From positions 28,954,001 to 29,018,000 of the forward strand of contig OX597829.1 in NCBI GenBank assembly GCA_951406725.2: 64,000 nucleotides of DNA, given 5' to 3'. Position numbers and translations under genes: made by a program. Shown here piece after piece: positions 4,036 through 62,037 of this stretch (the stretch's first letter is position 1; every line of letters starts with the position of its first letter). The notes below the pieces were generated by a model. That model saw only the letters and a program-made list of their open reading frames with translations, searched no databases and was not told the DNA's origin. This DNA is from Octopus vulgaris. Lineage: Eukaryota.

Positions 4036-5841
4036 GGATGATTTAAAGCTCTTTGTAAAAAATAACCAACAAGTACTGGACTTACTAGCAACTGTTAAAC
4101 AGTTCAGTGATTAGACATCAGGATGGACTTTGGCCTCAATAAATGTGCAAAAGCTACCTTTATCAGGGAAAAAATGATAGAAACATCCAACATTAATCTT
4201 GACCAACAGAATGTCATAAAGGAGTTAGAAACAGCAGAGAGCTACAAATATGTAGGGGTATTTGAAGGTGATGGAATCAAACAGTCAATGATGTGGGAAA
4301 AGATCAGAAAAGAGTGTTATCACAGGGTGAGGGCAATACACAAGACACAACAAAATGCAAGATACAGGATCAAAGCAATCAACACTTTAGCCATACTAGT
4401 CAGGATTTACAGTTTCAATATTATTCACTTGTCAATTACTGAAATCTATAATCTTGACAGAAAAATACAAAAATTGTTGACAATGCACCACCCAAAGGCA
4501 GATATAGAATGACTCTACTTGCCAAGAAAAGAGGGTGGCCATGGACTTTTACAACTGGAATTAACAATGAATATTGCCACAATTGACCTAAACACCTACC
4601 TGAAAAACTCTGATGACTGTATCTTAAAACTTGTTTTAAAGCATGAAAACAAAAAAACATTACACTTAGTAACAAATCAGGCAAAGAAATATCTAAGTAA
4701 ATTCCATATGCAAAAAATCCCAGAATTAGACATACTGGAAACAAGCACAGAGAAAGCTAAGCATATGAAAACCCATGCTAAAACTGCTGCTTTAGATATT
4801 CTTACTGATAAATGGCAAGGAAAGCCTCTTAATGGCAAACACCCAAAGAGAACTATTAAGGCCAATGTTGACAAAGCCCTTACCCATCAATGGTTAGTGT
4901 CTTCTAGCTTAAAATCAGAGACAGAAGGGTTTATCATAGTTGCCAACAGCTTAAAGAACAGCAATAGCCCAACATATCATATATGTAAACAACAAAATGA
5001 AACCATTGATAATTTTGTCTCTGTGTGCAGTTTTCTTGTGTCTACAGAGTATCTCAACAGGCATAATAGAGCAGCACATTAGATTCACTGGGTAATTTGC
5101 AAAAACCTGGACCTGCCCCATGATAAAAACTGGTGGGAACACAAACTACTTTCAGTGCTTGAAAATGACCACATCTCACACATTTGGAACTTCACCATTC
5201 AAACTGACAGAAAGGTAAATGCAAATAACACAGACATTATATTGAAGGACAAAAATCATGCCTTCTCATCGATATGAGTGTCCCAATCAACATAAATGTA
5301 TATGTCAAGACCTACCAAAGACTGAGCAAGTATAAAGATCTTAAAATAGAAATTGGCAAAATGTAGAACTGCATGAGCAAAACAATACCTGTTGTTATAG
5401 GGGCGGGCCCTAAGAATGATAGCAAAAGGGGCTGATTGCTACCTAGCTCATATACCAGGAAATCCAAAAATGGAAGAAATTAAAAAAATAGTGCTCGTGG
5501 GAATTGCCCATATCCTACGTAAAGTATTGTCTATGCAATCCCCCAAACATTTTAATATGTAAACATCGTGAAAAATACTTTTAAATGTACATAACAGCAA
5601 ACACCTTTTGCTGTCATCTTAACATCACACTATCATCTTATAATCAAATTACTTTTAAAACAAACTTCTAATTTACTTTTGTTTTGACAGACGTTCTCGA
5701 GAACAATACTCTGTGCAAAAACAAATATATGACACCCTAGTCATAATACTAACTTGGACTTATAACTTGTCTCTTGAGGTTTCTGGGTGAGACTTGGGAG
5801 TCAACTTGTACAAATACAGAGCAAAAGCCAAACATAATAAT
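4034..5841 (+). mobile_element. 5'-truncated R4/Dong-like non-LTR retrotransposon (RT, zinc knuckle, restriction-like endonuclease), pseudogenised
   Basis: Begins at MDDLKLF (RT YMDD region). Then FGLNKCA, HPKADIE*LYLPRKEGGHGL, LKSETEGFII, (C)HICKQQNETI..C...YLNRHN, WNFTIQTDRK..ANNTDII, KYKDL and GIAHILRKVL. The 3' UTR ends in ATAATAAT. Confidence 0.93.
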
Positions 5842-9268: not shown

Positions 9269-10481
9269 GTACGATTACTGCTGCTGCTGCTGTTGAAAAT
9301 TCTGGGATTTTCAAATTTACATTAAGCTTATTTATGTGCAACGGAAGCTGTTTTAGTACCAAACAGTAATCTTTATATCTCACTTAACATGGGTATACTG
9401 ATATACTTTAAGAACACCATAGTACAGTGGTATTCAACTTGAGAATATAGATGTAAGTACTAAAAAGCACACAATTATCAGTAGTGAGCAAAAAATGTCT
9501 AGCAACAGCAGCAGAACTTCTAGATCGTGCGATTTCTGCATGCATGCATATCATCAGCAGCAGATATTGACTATCAGCGCAATACTAATAACCTGGTGTA
9601 GAACAATATACATATACCCTTCAATGAAGTGTTAGTTGAGTATAGAGAAAAAAAAAGTATAGTTGAGTGTTAGTCCCCAAAGTCCATCCCCTCCTCACCG
9701 TGGTGGGGATGCTGGCAACGGGTAGTGTCAGAGCTATGCCGTTGGGAACTTCGGTTCCTGGTAGGGTCACCCAAGGCAGATTGGTCTGACACCAAGTGGT
9801 ATTAGGGCCACAACCCGGCAGACGGGGCTCTGGTGAAAATCCTCGGAGTGTCTGCTTCGGCAATCGGCGGCTCCTCGGTCATTCTGTCCCTGCGTCTGCG
9901 GACAATCTGTAGCAAACAGGATGTCTCCACATGCGGGATTGTTGGGGACCACTTGTGAAATCCACATATTCACACGAAACTTCTTCCATGAGTAGAAGAA
10001 GCCAACTCAACGCACCCAGGGTGAATGTCGCCACAAGTACAAGTACAAGTAAGCTAGTTAAGTATAGAAAAAAAAGAGATAACAAAAGAATAAATGATTA
10101 TCTTATGAACTTCATTAGCTGACAACTGTTTCCTCTATATGATGTGGTGGATTCATAGTTGAGTGCCTGAGTTACAACTCATAGCCTCATCAGAGCTTCA
10201 AATATGAATTGCACTTCATATTTGAAACTTTAATGAAACTATGTGTATATGCACGTATGCATGCATACATACACACTTACATACATACATACATACATTA
10301 ATATGTGCAACTAAGTTTCCATAAATTAGAAACCTTAAAATAATATTTACATTCGACAGATATTTGTCCTCATCTTGTTTGTTGTTAACACGGTTTGGCT
10401 GATATACCCTCCAGCCTTCATCAGGTGTCTTGGGAAAATTTCGAACCTGGGTTCTCATTCCTAAGGTATTCTTCGATGTTA

Positions 10482-10527
<46 letters not shown>

Positions 10528-10534
10528 GCCCACA

Positions 10535-10606
10535 GGCATATGGCGTAGTGGTTAAGAGTGCGGGCTACTAACCCCAAGATTCTGAGTTCAATTCCAAGCA
10601 GTGACC
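10535..10606 (+). promoter_or_regulatory. tRNA-derived Pol III head (closest to tRNA-Thr(AGT) by eye)
   Basis: A box TGGCGTAGTGG at 10541-10551, anticodon-like loop CTACTAA in a GGG/CCC stem, and B box GAGTTCAATTCC at 10584-10595. Confidence 0.8.
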
Positions 10607-10608
10607 TG

Positions 10609-10791
<183 letters not shown>

Positions 10792-10836
10792 GAAGAATAC
10801 CTTAGGAATGAGAACCCAGGTTCGAAATTTCCCCAA

Positions 10837-10879
10837 GACACCTGATGAAGGCTGGAGGGTATATCAGCTGAAACGTGTT
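10837..10879 (+). ncRNA. Minimal type I hammerhead ribozyme motif (this copy lacks the cleavage triplet)
   Basis: GACAC-CTGATGA-A-GGCTG(gagggtatat)CAGCT-GAAAC-GTGTT. The copies at 61 kb retain AAACGTT-GTGTT. Confidence 0.7.
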
Positions 10880-12343
10880 AACAACAAAGAAGATGAGGAC
10901 AAATATCCGTCGAATGTAAATAATATAAATAATGTACATAATTCCTCATCTCTTAAATATAGAACTTAAAATAATATTCTATCCATAATTAGAATCTCAA
11001 TGAAGGCAATAATGGAATGTCGGTATATGTTATAATAAAAACATGAAAATCTCCATAAACCAAGGAATTTGGAACCCTATGACAATGAAGGACAACTTAG
11101 AACAATGAGACCTTAAAAATAAAAGATTCATCTGCAGCTCTCGGTGGTTCAAACTGGATACACAATCTATATGGGTGTCTTTTCAAAACATTGCCTGGTT
11201 TAAAAAGCCACATCAGACGTCATGATGATTTTAAGGTGTAGGTACAGGAGGTGGTCGGACTCTACATAAGGAGTGAGACAACCACCATATATATATATAT
11301 ATTATTGGATAATAGAACGTATGGTTTAGACCTGGTAGCTTACTGGTAAAGTAATCGTTATGTTCCTGAACCAGCTGTTGAATGTCCCACTCATGAGGGA
11401 TCAATGCTAGATGTGTCAAAACAATTGGTATGATTAATAATGAATTCTCGTATACTCCATCTTCTGTCTTTCACTTGCCATATATATATATAGCGGTTCG
11501 GCAAAAGAGACCGATAGAATAAGTACTGGGCTTACAAAGAATAAGTCCCGGGGTCAATTTGCCTGACTAAAGGCGGTGCTCCAGCATGGCCGCAGTCAAA
11601 TAACTGAAACAAGTAAAAGAGTAAAAGAGTATATATATATGCGTGTGTGTGTGAGTGTGTACTCTTTTATACTCTTTTACTCGTTTCAGTCATTTGACTG
11701 CGGCCATGTTGGAGCACCGCCTTAAAGAATTTTATATATAAAGAATTTTTTTTCTTTTTTTTCCATTCCTCTTCCCTTTTCTCTCCCTTTCTATTTCTCT
11801 TCCTTTTTTCCCCTCTATTTCAATCCCTTAAATATATTCATTAATTTAGCATCATGTATATTTACTTTGAAATAGCATTCTCTATCTACTTCTCTCAGCT
11901 GTAACCAAGATGGCAGAGTCAATATGTATTATGTTCTATTTATGTGATAAATCCTAAATGTTAAATTTTACTCTTACTCCACCTGAAGAAAATGGCTTTT
12001 ATATGAGATAATAGTTTTGTTCATCAATAAAGGACATATCTGAAACAGCTGTATTGAACCTCAACCCATTTGTATTATTGTTTATACATCCATACATATA
12101 TATATAAATATATTTTATTTGTTTCAGTCATTTGATTGCAGTCATGCTGGAACATTGCCTTGAAGAGGTTTTAGTCAAACAAATCAACCCAGGACTTATT
12201 TCTGAAGCCTAGTACTTATTCTATCAGACTTTTTTGCCAAACTGCTAAGTTAAGGGGAAATAATCACATCAACATTAGTTGTCAAACGGTGATTGCAAGG
12301 ACAAACACAGATGCAAAGACACACACACATAGATATATACATA

Positions 12344-25715: not shown

Positions 25716-26450
25716 TTAATCCCCTTGATACCAACCTGCTTCAGACTGCCCTTGGCTCTATGCTATAAATTCCCTATTTTAATGTGAACTAAATTCAAAT
25801 CTATCAAAATTCCATGTTAATTTATGTCCCAAACGCTAGCTTATAAATGACAGTTATTTCACTAAATTTCTGGTTATTTTCAAAATTGATTAAAACAAAG
25901 GTAGTACTGTGTGGCACCTTGGACAAAGTGTCTTCTACTATAGCCTAGGGCCGACCAAAGCCTTGTGAGTGGATTTGGTAGACAGAAACTGGAAGAAGCC
26001 TGTCGTATATGTATATATATACGTGTGTGCGTGTGTGTGTGTGTGCTTGTGTGTCTGTGTTTGTCCCCCCGACATCACTTGACAACCAATGCTTATGTGT
26101 TTATGTCCCTGTAACTTACTGGTTCGGAAAAAGAGACTGATAGAATAAGTACCAGGCTTCCAAAGAATAAGTCCTGGGGTCGATTTGCTCAACTAAAGGC
26201 AATGCTCCAGCATGGCCACAGTCAAATGACTGAAAGAAGTAAAAGAGTAAAAAGAGAGTATATTTCAGCAGAAATATGGTAACAAAGGGGTTAAAGTGAT
26301 CTAAATTAAAACCTTCCCATCAAAATTTCCTCATTACTTATGTTCCAAACACCTGCTTATCAAAATTCTTCATTATTTTCAAAACCAATTGAAACGAAGG
26401 CAGTGTTTGGTTAACATATTTCAACAGAAATATGGTAACAAAAGTGTTAA
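25716..26450. mobile_element. piggyBac-like MITE (TTAA-bounded) with nested family A SINE at about 25910-26258
   Basis: TTAATCCCCTTGATACC ... GGTAACAAAAGTGTTAA imperfect TIRs. Related copies lie at about 7905-8710 and 29322-29683. Confidence 0.65.
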
Positions 26451-26909
26451 TGAAATACTTCCTATGTTATCTGCCGCATCTTCACCACTAAACACTCTCC
26501 ACCACCACATGCACACACACACACACGAACACACACATACACAGACACCATATGGTATTGATGAGTAACATTTTCCCAGTGGAGTTCAGCTACTTGGCAG
26601 TTATCATTCCAATCAGCAGATGTATATGTTTCTAGATTTGTGTGTGTGTGTGTGTTTCTTAGGGTTCTTTCATTTCATGGTTATTATCTTCCCTAATGAG
26701 TGCATATTGTGATTACGAGATGATCGCTGAAGGTTACTGATTGCTGAAGGATACTGATTCCCAGGTAGATTCCTTCTGGTAAACTTAAACTATGCAGGAA
26801 TCTGCAACAATTCTTCAGTTCTGTCCTCTATTGCTTTCACTTCGGAATAATTTACTAAGGTTTAAGGCAGTGAGCTGGCAGAATTGTTAATACAACAGGA
26901 ATAACATTT

Positions 26910-27335
26910 ATTCTTTTATTCTTTTATTTGTTTCAGTTATTTGACTGTGGCCATGCTGGAGCACCGCCTTTAGTCGAGCAAATCAACCACACAGCTTATT
27001 CTTTGTAAGCCAAGTATTTATTCTATCGGTCTCTTTTGCCGAACCGCTAAGTTACAGGGACATAAACACATAAGCATTGGTTGTCAAGTGATGTCGGAGG
27101 GTGGGGGACAAACACAGACACACAAGCACACACACACACACGCACACACATATATATATATATACATATACGACAGGCTTCTTCCAGTTTCTGTCTACCA
27201 AATCCACTCACAAGGCTTTGGTCGGCCCGAGGCTATAGTAGAAGACACTTGCCGAAGGTGCCATGCAGTAGGACTGAACCCGGGACCATGTAGTTTGTAA
27301 GCAAGCTATTTACCACACAACCACTCCTGCGCCTA
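26910..27335 (-). mobile_element. SINE family A nested in a family B SINE (26864-27500, +)
   Basis: The family B head lies before the insertion and its core resumes after it. Confidence 0.85.
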
Positions 27336-27883
27336 TTTAGCAATATTTCAGCCATCTTTACATTTTGTGTTAAAATGCTATCGATGTCGACTCTGCCTTT
27401 CATATGTTTGAGAGTCGATAAAATAAGTACGAGTTGAGTACCAGGGTCAATGTAATCAAATTACCCTACTCCTGAAATTGCTGGCCTTGGGCCAAAATAT
27501 AAAGATAATAATTGCAAAAGTTCTTTAGAATCAAAAACATCAGAGATCTGATTCTTTCCTGCCACCTACAGATTTGTAGTGTGTGTATGTGTGTGTATGT
27601 GTGTGTGTGTGCGCGTGTGTGTGTGTGTGCATAGGTTGAGTATGTATTTGAATTTGTATTGATATTGTGTATGTGCGTGCATGTGTGTATATGGGGGGGG
27701 GGGTTAGATGTGTATGAATGCATGGAAGTGTATGTATGTGTGGATGTGTGGGTGTGTATGGGTGGAGGTGTGTGCATGTGTATGCATGTTTTGTGTATGT
27801 GTGTGAATATGTATGAATGTGTATCAGTCTGGTGAATGGAAAGTATAAATATGCAAGGGTATATATATATATATATATATATA

Positions 27884-28236
27884 TTGCTTGCGAAGACCTG
27901 TTGGGGCAAGTGAAATCGGAATCGAAATTGAACCAATCCTATGACTGGCACCCAGCAGATGCCAGGACCCCTGGACTGGAGATACGTAAAAAGCACTATC
28001 CAAATCGTGGCTGATGCCAGCGCCGCCTCGCCTGGCACCAGTGGAGGTGGCACGTAAAAAGCACCCACTACACTCACGGAGTGGTTGGCGTTAGGAAGGG
28101 CATCCAGCTGTAGAAACATTGCCAGATAAGACCGGAGCCTGGTGCAGCCTTCTGGCTTCCCAGATCCCCAGTCGAACCGTCCAACCCATGCTAGCATGGA
28201 GAATGGACGTTAAACGATGATGATGATGATGATGAT
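27884..28236 (+). mobile_element. RTE 3' tail
   Basis: Near reverse complement of 7104-7497. Ends in (GAT)n. Confidence 0.88.
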
Positions 28237-28237
28237 A

Positions 28238-28650
28238 GCAGGAGTGGCTGTGTGGTAAGTAGCTTGCTTACCAACCACATGGTTCCAGGTTCGGTCCCAC
28301 TGTGTGGAACCTTGGGCAAGTGTCTTCTACTATAGCCTCAGGCCGACCAAACCTTGTGAGTGGATTTGGTAGACAGAAACTGAAAGAAGCCCGTTGTATA
28401 TATATATATATATATATATATGCGTGTGTGTGTGTTTGTGTGTCTGTGTTTGTCCCCCTAGCCTTGCTTGACAACCGATGCTGGTGTGTTTATGTCCCTG
28501 TAACTTAGCGGTTCGGCAAAAGAGACCGATAGAATAAGTACTGGGCTTACAAAAGAATAAGTCCCGGGGTCGAGTTGCTCGATTAAAGGCGGTGCTCCAG
28601 CATGGCCGCAGTCAAGTGACTGAAATAAGTAAAAGAGTAAAAGAGTAAAA

Positions 28651-33249: not shown

Positions 33250-33830
33250 TATTTCCTATTTAGTATTGGGAAATTTTCATTTATGAGGATGTATTCCTGT
33301 ATTTGTCTGAGTGTTGGGTCCTTTGGGTGCTTGGATAAGATGCAGATGTCAAGTTGACCTAGGTTGCCTCCACGTTGGTAGGGTGTGTTTTTTGTCGTCA
33401 TATTGTCTCAAATGTTCATTTAGTCATTCTGCAATGCTCCTAGATGTCTCCCCTATATATGTCATGTTCATATCTTTACAAGCACCTTCTATGCATCTTA
33501 TGCTGTAAACTACATTTCGAGTTCTACAGTTAATGCCAGGGCTAATCTCACATGCCATGCAGTTATCATTGGTGCATATGGTATTCTCAAAAGGGTACAT
33601 CGTACATAGTTGTGATCTGATGGAATTCCCTGGCTTTTCAACAATCTTTATGTTGAGTTTGATCTCCTTTGCAGCTTTCCTAAATCTACAGGCTAGTTCT
33701 CCATTGGCTGTGGCCTCTACAAACATTACTCCTTGATATTTGTTGGTTTTATACCACACGTTCACCTTGTTTGCTTTGTCACAAGTTCTTTGTATCCTAT
33801 TCCAGTCTTTGTTTCTATATCTAGGGCAGG
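33250..33830 (-). mobile_element. Penelope-like retroelement GIY-YIG endonuclease remnant
   Basis: VMFVEATANGELA...KIVEKPG...CTNDNCMAC...NCRTRNVVYSIRC...C...YIGETSRSIAE*LNEH. This is the VVY-YIG motif with an upstream Cys cluster and an in-frame stop. Confidence 0.92.
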
Positions 33831-34056
33831 TACCACTGATATCATTACATATAATGTTATCTAAATAGATAACATTATATGTAATGACCCACACACATGT
33901 GCACAAACAAACAAAACAGAGTCAATAACTATTGAAAAGGTTGCAGGATGCAATGAAAATTTTAGAAAAATAAAGAAGGAAATGAGTAGAAATTTTACCA
34001 GTGAGTGTATTAAATTATAAGGCACTAAAAGAGAATGACTCTCCCCAGACATAACA

Positions 34057-40839: not shown

Positions 40840-41464
40840 GGATCTTTACCCTTTGACTGACAGATTTAAAAAATAACTTTTTGTAACTAAGCACTTTCAA
40901 ACTTCGTATACTGGTAGAATGTGTCACATAAAACATCTTTTACTCTTGGCGTTGTTGAGAAAATTCTATATTTTGGAAGTTATTTCTTGTTAAAGTTGTC
41001 GTAATTTAGTAATTTCAACCAATCAATGACGTGTATTCAGCTGAATAAAATTACTGCTGTTGTTTATCAACAACTTCTAGCGGCACATATTTCATCTCAG
41101 TCACATTTATATGAATAAACGCGTGTACCTGAAGCATGTTTACTTCATGGCACCACCATAATCGTTCGTGCTTCATTTTTCATTTTTTTTTCCGTAACTC
41201 CATCACTAAAACCCCAACCCTAACCCTAAAACCAGTATAAATGCACGAACGATGTCATAAATAACAATGACACGTCTTTGATTGGTTGAAATTACCGAAT
41301 TACGACAACTTTAACAAGAAATAACTTCCAAAATACAGATTTTTCTCAACAACACCAAGAGTAAAAGATGTTTTATGTGACACATTCTACCAGTATACGA
41401 GGTTTGAAAGTGTTTAGTTACAAAAAATTATTTTTTAAATCTGTCGGTCAAAAGGTAAAGATCC
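40840..41464. mobile_element. MITE/foldback element with ~190-bp TIRs (GGATCTTT...AAAGATCC), related to 23459-23876
   Basis: 40840-41030 is the reverse complement of about 41272-41464. It shares AACTTCGTATACTGGTAGAATGTG and TTCAACCAATCAATGACGT with the 23.5-kb MITE. Confidence 0.92.
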
Positions 41465-49465: not shown

Positions 49466-50287
49466 CATTATTCGAAAAAAGACACATTACAAAAAAAGTA
49501 TCAGTCCAATACTGAAATCGTCATCATCATCATCAACTAACCCTCACCTCTTAAAATTGCTGGCCTTGAATCTAAACTAGAAATCATTATTGCATATGGT
49601 CCTTATTTAAGATGGAAGTTTATGATTAGTTGTGACTCACCAGTGCAGGGGTTACCAAACTGTTGCAGCAACAAGATATGTCCCAATACCAAGAAAATTT
49701 CACCAAATACAACAAATATTTAAAGACGGCTGGTGGACACACAAAAGTCAAAACACTGTTGCTATTACAACTACCTTGAAGACACTGCTCCCTCTGGATA
49801 CATTACTGATTATCAGGAGTAATTTCTCATCTCAGAACTTCAAACTGAAATTCTGGATATAAAAGTTGATAATTATATTTCCTTTATCAAATAAAGTATT
49901 TCTCAATAACAAAATAATGAAGATGGAGTAGTACATCTTACAATGTAAAAATGGAAAACTTTAGTGCATTGGAAGAAGTTCTCATTCTCTTCATTAATTT
50001 ATTCTACTTCTTTATCACAAAACAAACTACAACACTTTTCTTCCCAAGTACTCAATAATTTCCTTTAAGAACATTGGACAAAATGCTTTCAATGATTACT
50101 TGTTCTGGTTTTTTTATGTTCTAAGTTTGGATCCTGCCAAGACCAATTTTGCCTTTCATCGTAGCAGGGAACATTAAAATAAAGGACCAGCCAAGTACAA
50201 GAATTCATGTAATCAAATGTTTCCCTCACTTGCAATTTCAGGTCTTGTGCCAATGTTAAAAGCAATATATATATATATATATATATA

Positions 50288-50445
50288 CTTTATTTTAAGC
50301 AGCAGAAAATTCAACAAAATCTGTTACTCTGAGTTTCTCGTTGCCGTTCATCAGACAGTTTTTGCTAGAAAAAACTGTCTGATGAACGGCAACGAGAAAC
50401 TCAGAGTAACAGATTTTGTTGAATTTTCTGCTGCTTAAAATAAAG
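50288..50445. repeat. Perfect inverted repeat, 76-bp arms, 6-bp spacer (inverted Penelope pLTR-like unit)
   Basis: 50288-50363 is the exact reverse complement of 50370-50445, with spacer GCTAGA. Confidence 0.97.
50375..50412 (+). ncRNA. Minimal type I hammerhead ribozyme (mirror copy on - strand at 50321-50358)
   Basis: CTGT-CTGATGA-A-CG-GCAA-CG-A-GAAA-CTC-A-GAG-TA-ACAG. Both core motifs are intact, with a GUA triplet and stem I CTGT/ACAG. Confidence 0.8.
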
Positions 50446-50771
50446 CATATTACTCTACCACTGGTATTTGAGTACTCTTTTTTCCACCTTGTTTCACATT
50501 TATGTGTTTACTCCGGTATATATATATATATATATATACAAGATAAGAAAATGGAGAAATACATCTAAATCAAATATCAATTACCAGATAATACTCAATC
50601 GCATACTTTATTAAACCACCACTTAAGAGACTGTAGGGTTAGATATAAAAAGCAGAACAAATCAGTGTACATAAAGGTATGTACATAAAAAAGTGTACAT
50701 AAAAAAGTAATGTTGTATAATAAGTAGAATATATATAAAAGAGAATATAAATATAAGTAAATATAAGTATA

Positions 50772-60023: not shown

Positions 60024-60990
60024 ACAAATTTTTCTGTAATATAAGGACGCTTTACCTTATTTATGCTATTCAACATTATTATTATGCATTTGAGACTAAA
60101 ATATTTCCCTCTGTGAGTATATATATATATAAATACAAAATGGGACAAGAACGCAAAACATCCAGAAGACGATACAAAAAACACGGACGGGTCATTTGAA
60201 GCCTTTAATCTTCAGCCAAGAATCGGATCATCCTCGCAATTTCGGCTGATTAATCCTGAGATTGCTCCAATCTGGCCAGCCCCAAGGAAAAATTAAGCTA
60301 AGAGCATTAGATTCCTTGGAAAAAAGCTTCAAATGTATACGAAACAAGGATGGAAAAACGGATGATGTTACACGAATATAAATACAAAAATAATACAAAA
60401 AAACAATAATAATAATAATAACAGGACATTACAAGAGGCGTCTTTCGACTGGAAACGAATTGAATTCAGCTGGTGTGTTAGGAATTAAGCCTTTACAGCA
60501 GAGGAAAAATGTCGATGTAACAGCAACCTATATATGTGTGTGTGTGTATATGTATATGTGTTGTTGTTGTTGTTGCTGTTATATAGTTGAAAATTGTAGA
60601 AAAACAAAAGAATAACAAAAGACGAATTTATTATTATACAGTTGTTGGCTGTTGCTGGTCATGAAGTTACCATTAGTTCCACATCTATTATTGCGCTTTT
60701 AGCAATAAAGGCTACTCATCAGGTCCACTGACTGGAGGTACATAACCTCTTTACTAATGAAGGTAAAATTATAGTTTTGATCAGCTTGGTGGTGAAAGAA
60801 ACCCCTGATATGAAATTCTTTGAAGTGAAACCCCACTTCTGGGAGAGACAGAATTATCTCCCTTTGAATAGTTCCAGTTGTGCCCATTTTCAGTTTTATA
60901 TATACCTTTTACATTTTACTATTTTCAGTCATTAGACTGTGGCCATGCTGGGGCACTGCCTTGAAGAATTTTTAGTTGAACAAATTAACC

Positions 60991-61145
60991 ACATTATTTA
61001 CATTATTTACATTTGATAGATATTTGTACTCATCTTGTTTGTTGTTAACACAACGTTTTGACTGATATACCCTCCAGCCTTCATCAGGTGTCTTGGGAAA
61101 ATTTCAAACATGGGGTTCTCATTCCTAAGGTACTTTTCGTTGTTG

Positions 61146-61209
<64 letters not shown>

Positions 61210-61305
61210 TCACTACCTGGAATTGAACTTGGAATCTTAGGGTTAAGAGTGCGGGCTACTAACCCCAAGATTCCGAGTTTGATTCCAGGCAGTGATGTGA
61301 TGTGA

Positions 61306-61336
<31 letters not shown>

Positions 61337-61348
61337 TAATAATAGTAG

Positions 61349-61394
<46 letters not shown>

Positions 61395-61574
61395 TCGAAT
61401 AATACCTTAGGAATGAGAACCCAGGTTCAAAATTTTCCCAAGACACCTGATGAATGCTGGAGGGTATATCAGCCAAAACGTTGTGTTAACAACAAACAAG
61501 ATGAGGACAAATATCCATCAAATGCAAATTATGTAAATAATGTACATAATTCCTCATCTCTTAAATATAGAACT
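60991..61574. mobile_element. Second head-to-head dimer of the tRNA/hammerhead SINE, inserted in a family A SINE
   Basis: Minus copy 60991-61242 joins plus copy 61241-61574 within the tRNA heads. AAATTAACC is duplicated at 60982-60990 and 61575-61583. Confidence 0.9.
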
Positions 61575-62037
61575 AAATTAACCTCAGTACTTTATTTTAA
61601 AACCTAGTACTTATTGTATTGATCTCTTTTGCCGAAGTGCTCAGTTACTGGGATGTAAATACACCAGCACCAGTTGTCAAGTGGTGGTGGTAGTGGTGGA
61701 CAAACATGGACACAGAGACATAGACACATCATCATCATCATTTGACGTCTGTTATCCAGGGGCTGGACGGTATGACTGGGCTGGCGTGCTGGAAGGCTTC
61801 AGTCAGATCTGGCATAGTTTTCTACAGCTTGATGCCCTTCCTAATTCCAATCACACCGAGAATGTAATGGGTGCTTTTATGTGCCACCAGCACAGGTGAC
61901 ATTTGTGTGATACCGGGGTGCATTTATGTGGAAGTATCTGCCACAACTGTGATTTTGCTCGGCTTAATGGGTCTTCTTCTCAAGCATAGCATTATGCTCC
62001 ATGAGGCTGAAAATATATATATATATATATATATATG

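Follow-up and report, generated by a model that had tools for sequence, protein, structure and literature searches.

The closest described relatives of the repeat analysed here are Poseidon_Ac of the green anole (PAc; PMC11167929) and Pen2a of Adineta (PMC3846280). In the parts of these papers on which we draw, PAc and Pen2a combine a reverse transcriptase (RT) with a C-terminal GIY-YIG domain, their pseudo-LTR overlaps the start of the open reading frame (ORF) and contains a hammerhead, and their copies have two internal 3' ends bounding a 30-40-nt tail, an adjacent inverted pseudo-LTR and palindromic junctions. The octopus family shares all these features. Inverted 5' copies, a 30-40-nt tail at one end and 8-10-bp duplications are given as hallmarks of Penelope-like elements (PLEs) in sections of PMC3846280 and PMC8557442, and such a minimal type I hammerhead is described for animal PLEs in part of PMC4209133. 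The origin of the tandem and inverted structures of PLEs is stated to be open in the relevant passage of PMC8557442. Whereas the duplications of PAc and Pen2a measure 8-10 bp, those of the octopus family are mostly 11-14 nt long when end overlaps are counted. Moreover, unlike its counterparts as described in those papers, the octopus pseudo-LTR opens with a tRNA-like head carrying A and B boxes and continues with an (AAT)n spacer, and the 2,945-nt unit is free of T4 runs.

Other known elements, again as far as the cited parts of the literature describe them, resemble the unit in single traits. The SINE-like hammerhead repeats of Schistosoma (PMC6765202) place a type I hammerhead behind a Pol III-type promoter, an order that the octopus unit shares with its candidate promoter, but they are non-coding and arranged in tandem, whereas the octopus unit forms the terminal repeat of an element that is coding and inserts head-to-head. 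The TRIMp3 elements Cassandra, Helenus and Ajax (PMC10886601) carry a small-RNA-derived Pol III promoter within their terminal repeat, where the octopus family has its candidate promoter; they are non-autonomous LTR elements of <1.3 kb, whereas the octopus element is an autonomous PLE of 2.9 kb. Animal non-LTR retrozymes (10.64898/2026.07.22.740005) share the type I hammerhead and a relationship to PLEs, but form non-coding tandem arrays, while the octopus unit is the pseudo-LTR itself. The part of the 2026 octopus repeat annotation considered here (PMC13282606) mentions neither hammerheads nor Pol III.

Our main reading, to which we assign a probability of about 0.8, is that the locus at 60982-61583 represents a single insertion, in which two copies of the pseudo-LTR of a broken Penelope/Poseidon element of 2.9 kb lie head-to-head. 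This insertion was likely twin-primed from both nicked target strands, and the tRNA-like head of the family is likely an internal Pol III-type promoter.

Two head-to-head insertions in the window

The window, by which we mean the whole 64-kb stretch of DNA that was analysed, belongs to a genome of 2.8 Gb. The insertion at 60991-61574 consists of head-to-head arms between two copies of AAATTAACC, and the inverted arms are 91% complementary (60983-61114 and 61420-61551). In the list below, the duplications, the spacers, the tail and the B-box-like motif of arm 2 were read from the sequence, and the B-box-like motif of arm 1 from an alignment to the family head.

60906..61690, plus strand: high-copy repeat that hosts the insertion and is interrupted by it, approximate ends
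60982..60990, plus strand: left target-site duplication, AAATTAACC
60991..61245, minus strand: arm 1, pseudo-LTR copy with the short 3' site, 5'-truncated inside the head
61047..61092, minus strand: minimal type I hammerhead motif of arm 1, G12-to-A (61059), predicted inactive
61145..61205, minus strand: (AAT)n spacer of arm 1, approximate ends
61219..61230, minus strand: B-box-like motif of arm 1, in a truncated head without A box
61241..61245, no strand: junction microhomology GGTTA (5 nt), common to both arms
61241..61574, plus strand: arm 2, pseudo-LTR copy with the long 3' site, its 5' end missing up to a point within the head, A box included
61275..61286, plus strand: B-box-like motif of arm 2, with CpG decay
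61307..61391, plus strand: (AAT)n spacer of arm 2, approximate ends
61413..61574, plus strand: first 54 codons of the element's ORF, ATG at 61413, cut at the long 3' site
61442..61487, plus strand: minimal type I hammerhead motif of arm 2 inside the ORF start, G12-to-A (61475), predicted inactive
61544..61574, plus strand: 31-nt Penelope 'tail', the interval from the short to the long 3' site
61575..61583, plus strand: right target-site duplication, AAATTAACC
10334..10978, no strand: independent second insertion of this family, also head-to-head, with a duplication of 14 bp and arms that meet at the 5' palindrome of the head

When the insert and one AAATTAACC are removed in silico, the host repeat is restored and 18 other copies in the window align across the site, which agrees with the 9-bp duplication and the repeat target named in the initial annotation. 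The junction lies inside the heads, as claimed there, with GGTTA as the overlap. The plus arm terminates at ...TTAAATATAGAACT (61574), and the minus arm lacks these last 31 nt; at 10.3 kb the minus arm is shorter by about 40 nt. Both values fall in the 25-45 bp by which the inverted copy was said to be shorter, but calling that arm the inverted one is a convention, and across the pair loci the long end may belong to either arm. Similarly, (AAT)n spacers are present in both arms at 61 kb, but (AAC)n makes up part of the spacer at 10.3 kb. Over 46 aa, the ORF start at 61413..61574 shares 41% identity with the N-terminus of P0003, an intact protein of 847 aa. At both loci the arms match the family majority with 93-96% identity and one another with 90-95%, and the insertions are therefore old. 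The copy at 60982-61583 is predicted to be dead, since its A boxes and G12 are lost.

The duplication copies of the second locus lie at 10334-10347 and 10965-10978. The flanks of the two loci have scattered repeat pieces of at most 233 nt in common, and no collinear block was found between them. Thus, since the 10.3-kb locus also has a 14-bp duplication of its own, the two are independent insertions, as had been proposed, and not products of one segmental duplication, the counter-case raised at the time. No further copies of the repeat beyond the two head-to-head pairs were found within the 64-kb window.

The hammerhead has a 5-bp stem I (GACAC/GTGTT), the core CTGATGA and GAAA, and a 6-bp stem II. 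Its helix III is palindromic (self-complementary AACGUU), and pairing of this helix could be possible only between two molecules. An Rfam scan of the window gave no hammerhead match, and minimum-free-energy folds of the hammerhead and head regions were no more stable than shuffles (z -1.1 to 1.3). The reported G-to-A change at the CpG of GAAA is indeed found in both arms of the 61-kb locus, where A replaces the G that the family majority has at G12. Across the family this change is seen in 24/178 arms (in both arms of 2/21 pairs), compared with 29/158 and 21/179 at other CpG sites, and in the reads of four runs G is absent at G12 in 11-18% of the depth. Because G12 sits in a CpG and its A frequency is similar to that of other CpG sites, the change is best read as ordinary CpG decay, which would inactivate the predicted hammerhead motif.

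The window contains further repeats of note. At 50283-50450 there is a head-to-head pair of another repeat (98% perfect, 84-nt arms, no spacer) with a hammerhead-like core CTGATGA...GAAAC; it is probably the end of a different PLE family and also occurs in L035 and L077. A decayed frame at 33427-33921 on the minus strand, with a Cys-rich linker and a GIY-YIG motif, is a Neptune- or Naiad-type PLE fragment. The LINE ORF fragment at 4513-5079 on the plus strand resembles the restriction-like-endonuclease LINE of L258, and several long inverted pairs of host-type repeats, 84-94% complementary, lie at 26006-28553 and 40840-41464.

The repeat unit and its parent element

The loci surveyed are the 165 top-scoring matches of body, head, EN and RT queries and not a random sample. 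The unit consists of the tRNA-like head, the (AAT)n spacer and a 185-nt body with the minimal type I hammerhead, in this order. The body encodes a protein N-terminus, and the ATG of the ORF lies within it. At the 3' side of the element the unit adjoins the GIY-YIG stop, and at the 5' side it precedes the ORF. In 5/29 head-selected loci we found shared upstream sequence that translates as a GIY-YIG C-terminus. With this C-terminus as the query, head and/or body directly follow the stop in 29/29 further loci, and walking upstream reached the RT (Pfam RVT_1, E 2.4e-10). L290, the only 5'-complete copy among the loci examined, has head, body and ORF in succession. Thus, since it follows the GIY-YIG stop and runs into the ORF in L290, the unit is the pseudo-LTR of an autonomous PLE, and the designation 'SINE family' in the initial annotation has to be given up. 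Across the family loci, the pseudo-LTR is found at both ends of the ORF, together with the tail and an inverted 5' copy.

The family majority sequence, built from 122 segments, contains one 835-aa frame that starts at the ATG in the body, comprises RT and GIY-YIG domains and ends in a VYSIPCSCGRLYKG-type nuclease; the nuclease part was not itself scored in a Pfam-A profile search. Over residues 11-831 the frame is 57% identical to P0003, which comes from a public assembly and whose N-terminus matches that of the family frame. Homologues of the 835-aa protein carry PF00078, PF28514 and PF26215, and the proteins P0001-P0004 show 57-75% identity to the family. The family protein has the DKG motif and a CCHH motif that places two Cys within the GIY-YIG core, but no CX2-5CxxC linker finger, which the control L050 does have and which is a feature of Neptune and Nematis; these definitions are those given in part of PMC8557442. 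Based on its motifs and homologues, the family is thus predicted to be an EN+ PLE of the Penelope/Poseidon group. No intact copy was found in two sets of 150 hits from the genome, where the longest open frames measure 375 and 569 aa. Reads of five sequencing runs show that the family is present in organisms A-E. A search of these five runs for reads of the empty allele was dominated by paralogues of the host repeat and of the element, and recovered neither an empty nor a filled orthologous junction.

With tRNA-derived SINEs the family shares a head with A and B boxes (at the 61-kb locus the A box is lost). It differs from them in that the unit is contiguous with an ORF at both ends and in that copies end at two fixed internal sites rather than in a 3' poly(A) or simple-repeat tail. 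Moreover, the element is coding and its copies are head-to-head, unlike the non-coding tandem units of non-LTR retrozymes. A Penelope-mobilised SINE, our first reading, was replaced once the unit proved to be contiguous with the coding ORF. A decayed GIY-YIG frame upstream of L028 was considered as the parent and turned out to be an unrelated old PLE hit by a solo copy. A search with the flank of L027 found another repeat only, and three other PLE families, with frames of 781, 885 and 717 aa, were rejected as partners, having no sequence in common with the unit.

These families are of note in their own right. L050 and L055 belong to a young Neptune-type family with many open 781-aa frames, and L104 and L107 to a young 885-aa family whose 3' repeat contains a hammerhead-like motif with a long stem II. 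The very young 717-aa family (L124-L153; 21,764 first-look candidates) sits in (TA)n, often as inverted pairs, and 150/150 scored hits are 100% identical in protein. It has two 3' ends about 70 nt apart, a CCGAWGA hammerhead-like core and DKT without CCHH, and may be Hydra-like. The (AAT)n spacer of the pseudo-LTR has been hit repeatedly by other repeats and by restriction-like-endonuclease LINEs, which we take to be R4/Dong-like (L007, L025, L187, L200, L258, L262); such insertions can hide a second arm. Finally, at 4053-5231 of L266 as oriented, an intronless frame of 393 aa resembling a rhodopsin-type GPCR has a copy of the element about 60 nt upstream of it.

The tRNA-like head and a candidate promoter

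The family head contains an A box, TGGCGTAGTGG, and a B box, GAGTTCGATTCC, and its best tRNA alignment among the seven isotypes compared is to Arg-TCT; the Rfam scan of the window gave no tRNA match. Among body-selected arms that reach the B box, 15/29 have their 5' end between -15 and +3 of the tRNA-like sequence and one reaches the ORF; in the head-selected set, which is biased, these numbers are 24/33 and four. The commonest 5' end is at -7, and the DNA 5' ends cluster in a zone of 10-20 nt before the A box. Transcription may thus start about 7 nt before the tRNA-like sequence and be driven by the A and B boxes, a less certain step of the model, and the pile-up of 5' ends could instead reflect a polymerase stop at a small palindrome. 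In an older sister family, to which L342 led, the parts are arranged in the same way; this family has kept the A box, the B box and the hammerhead, while it differs in the anticodon arm and the spacer. Its loci L354-L383 have a tRNA-like head and a hammerhead of their own and also occur in inverted pairs.

The sense strand of the 2,945-nt unit contains no T4 run. Four ORFs of the three other PLE families contain 15, 13, 7 and 10, at or above their own shuffles. Seven decayed copies of the element (14,058 nt) have nine T4 runs and no T5 run, and a T4 variant at one site of the pseudo-LTR is found in 35/162 arms. For the ORF alone the depletion of T runs is modest (P 0.03 when compared with synonymous shuffles and 0.007 with base shuffles), and T runs are scarce in two LINE fragments as well (1 in 1,053 nt, 2 in 1,449 nt), as their shuffles predict. 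Taken at the level of sequence, these features suggest Pol III transcription of a coding retrotransposon. We put the chance that the element does use Pol III at even or slightly less. No PLE with a tRNA-type or Pol III promoter was found in the literature searched; Repbase, Dfam and supplements lie beyond that scope and may hold the family.

Alternatively, the Penelope element and its integration could be unchanged, with Pol II starting from a TATA-like box in which the upstream unit ends and the head being an old captured passenger; the 5' ends would then cluster at the Pol II start or at the palindrome. We consider this a real possibility, if one with odds well below even. The TATA-like TTTATAAG lies 34 nt upstream of the head and about 27-31 nt upstream of the common 5' ends, it is conserved in the sister family, the PLE promoters published in the parts of PMC3846280 and PMC8557442 used here are of TATA/Inr or intron-overlapping Pol II types, and the protein has to be translated from some transcript. 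However, the A and B boxes were retained though the sequence between them has diverged, the unit is without T4 runs while other PLE families match or exceed their shuffles, and the 5'-complete L290 has no TATA-like box.

Many copies consist of the pseudo-LTR only, with both the A and the B box intact, and could be transcribed by themselves, so they might form a true Pol III SINE sub-lineage that arose from the pseudo-LTR and is spread by the Penelope protein. We find this unlikely: short and ORF-linked copies are inseparable by sequence here, single insertions join short arms to ORF-bearing arms, and the numbers of first-look candidates, which are not copy numbers, are alike for body (1,901), head (1,434) and EN end (2,100).

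Two fixed 3' ends and the formation of the dimer

Of the 165 loci, 148 carry the body and 58 of these are head-to-head pairs. Duplicates of one locus were merged, and the 25/58 pairs without a detectable duplication were excluded from the count of end classes. The duplications of the remaining 33 are 8-20 nt long (11-14 nt in 27/33); duplications of at least 8 nt were found in 22/44 pair rows as against 5/455 mismatched-flank controls. The 3' ends of the body form two groups, at about positions 140-152 and 180-190, so that the fixed sites lie about 35-45 nt apart inside the ORF start. In 30/33 duplication-flanked pairs one long end is combined with one short end; long+long and short+short combinations do not occur, and in the other three one end is unclassed. 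In sets that were not chosen by 3' end, and with the long class extended to 195, the long+short combination is found in 23/24 pairs. Among 17 ORF-richer arms, 11 have the short end, 5 the long end and 1 an end of another kind. This strict pairing, with the ORF in either arm, fits twin priming from the two internal start sites known from the anole: in the part of PMC11167929 considered here, the Poseidon protein cuts and extends both strands in vitro and initiates at two internal sites flanking the tail.

Two subfamily variants are shared by the arms of a pair more often than expected by chance. At position 128, 5 pairs are GG, 17 AA and 1 mixed (Fisher p 1.8e-4), and at position 59 the concordance has p 0.019; the two positions were chosen among five sites examined, and overlap sufficed in 21/33 pairs. 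An all-site permutation test of variants shared by the arms was not significant (36 vs 28.9, P 0.15). Although it was not, the concordance of the two variants makes a common source element likely; gene conversion between the arms could also cause shared variants.

In the model that we favour, the element protein would cut the two target strands 9-14 nt apart, and both target 3' ends would prime reverse transcription, which would begin at the long internal site from one of them and at the short site from the other. The resulting cDNAs would stop at the 5' end of the RNA or earlier, anneal via a few shared bases (GGTTA at 61 kb, the palindrome TGCCC-NN-GGGCA at 10.3 kb) and be joined by repair that fills in and leaves the duplication. 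Less certainly, the many copies of SINE size would stem from priming behind the 5' pseudo-LTR, and the ORF-bearing arms from priming behind the 3' pseudo-LTR. In L1 twin priming, two primers from both target strands produce a head-to-head inversion with a microhomology junction, and L1 primes at the poly(A) as well as at internal sites that vary, on parts of the RNA that do not overlap. The octopus family resembles L1 in that both target strands would prime and in the inversion and the microhomology; unlike in L1, both its arms are copies of one sequence, started from two fixed sites. The literature searched contained no description of PLE twin priming or of strict end pairing.

The inverted arm might also result from self-priming (fold-back) on a palindrome or on an antisense template, without a second target-primed event. 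Palindromic junctions are frequent, including that of the 10.3-kb locus, and a fold-back was put forward for rotifer Penelopes (in part of PMC3846280). We hold this to be quite unlikely. It gives no reason for a second fixed 3' end, the 61-kb arms break at different positions of the head, and at L265, L270 and L258 the inverted arm is not the complement of the 5' end of the sense arm. Indeed, at L265 and L270 a whole inverted pseudo-LTR adjoins an arm that is cut inside the ORF, which a single-cDNA fold-back cannot explain. That two ordinary SINE copies were rearranged later, or that one locus was duplicated segmentally, is extremely improbable, since we found no point in its support, one duplication encloses both arms at 33 loci, the ends are fixed internal sites without a simple-repeat tail, and the flanks of the window loci are unrelated. 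Twin priming with microhomology end-joining is therefore favoured over fold-back and later rearrangement, its individual steps being those we infer.

The initial annotation had attributed the inversion to the integration mechanism, and the single duplication around both arms and the pairing of one long with one short fixed 3' end support this. The inverted dimer is, however, a known Penelope footprint and hence not new. The features worth following are that a coding PLE has a candidate tRNA-like promoter and that long and short ends are strictly paired. In its fullest form, our proposal would be that an autonomous coding Penelope lineage switched to a tRNA-type Pol III promoter, purged oligo-T terminators from its 2.9-kb unit and became bound to an obligate long+short twin priming, so that one type of transcript gives rise to thousands of SINE look-alikes and to ORF-bearing copies; we regard this as tentative, its chance falling just short of one half.

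The pairing of long and short ends over dozens of old insertions ties the two start sites seen in vitro to the inverted structure. The TRIMp3 study argues, in the part cited here, that autonomous partners must use Pol II (PMC10886601), and an element that is coding, has a Pol III-type promoter and lacks terminators would, if true, be an exception to this rule. It would also raise the question of how a coding element transcribed by Pol III gets translated. Moreover, some of the annotated tRNA-SINEs in such genomes would be the ends of PLEs, and a coding retroelement that is read by Pol III would offer a possible route to the birth of SINEs.
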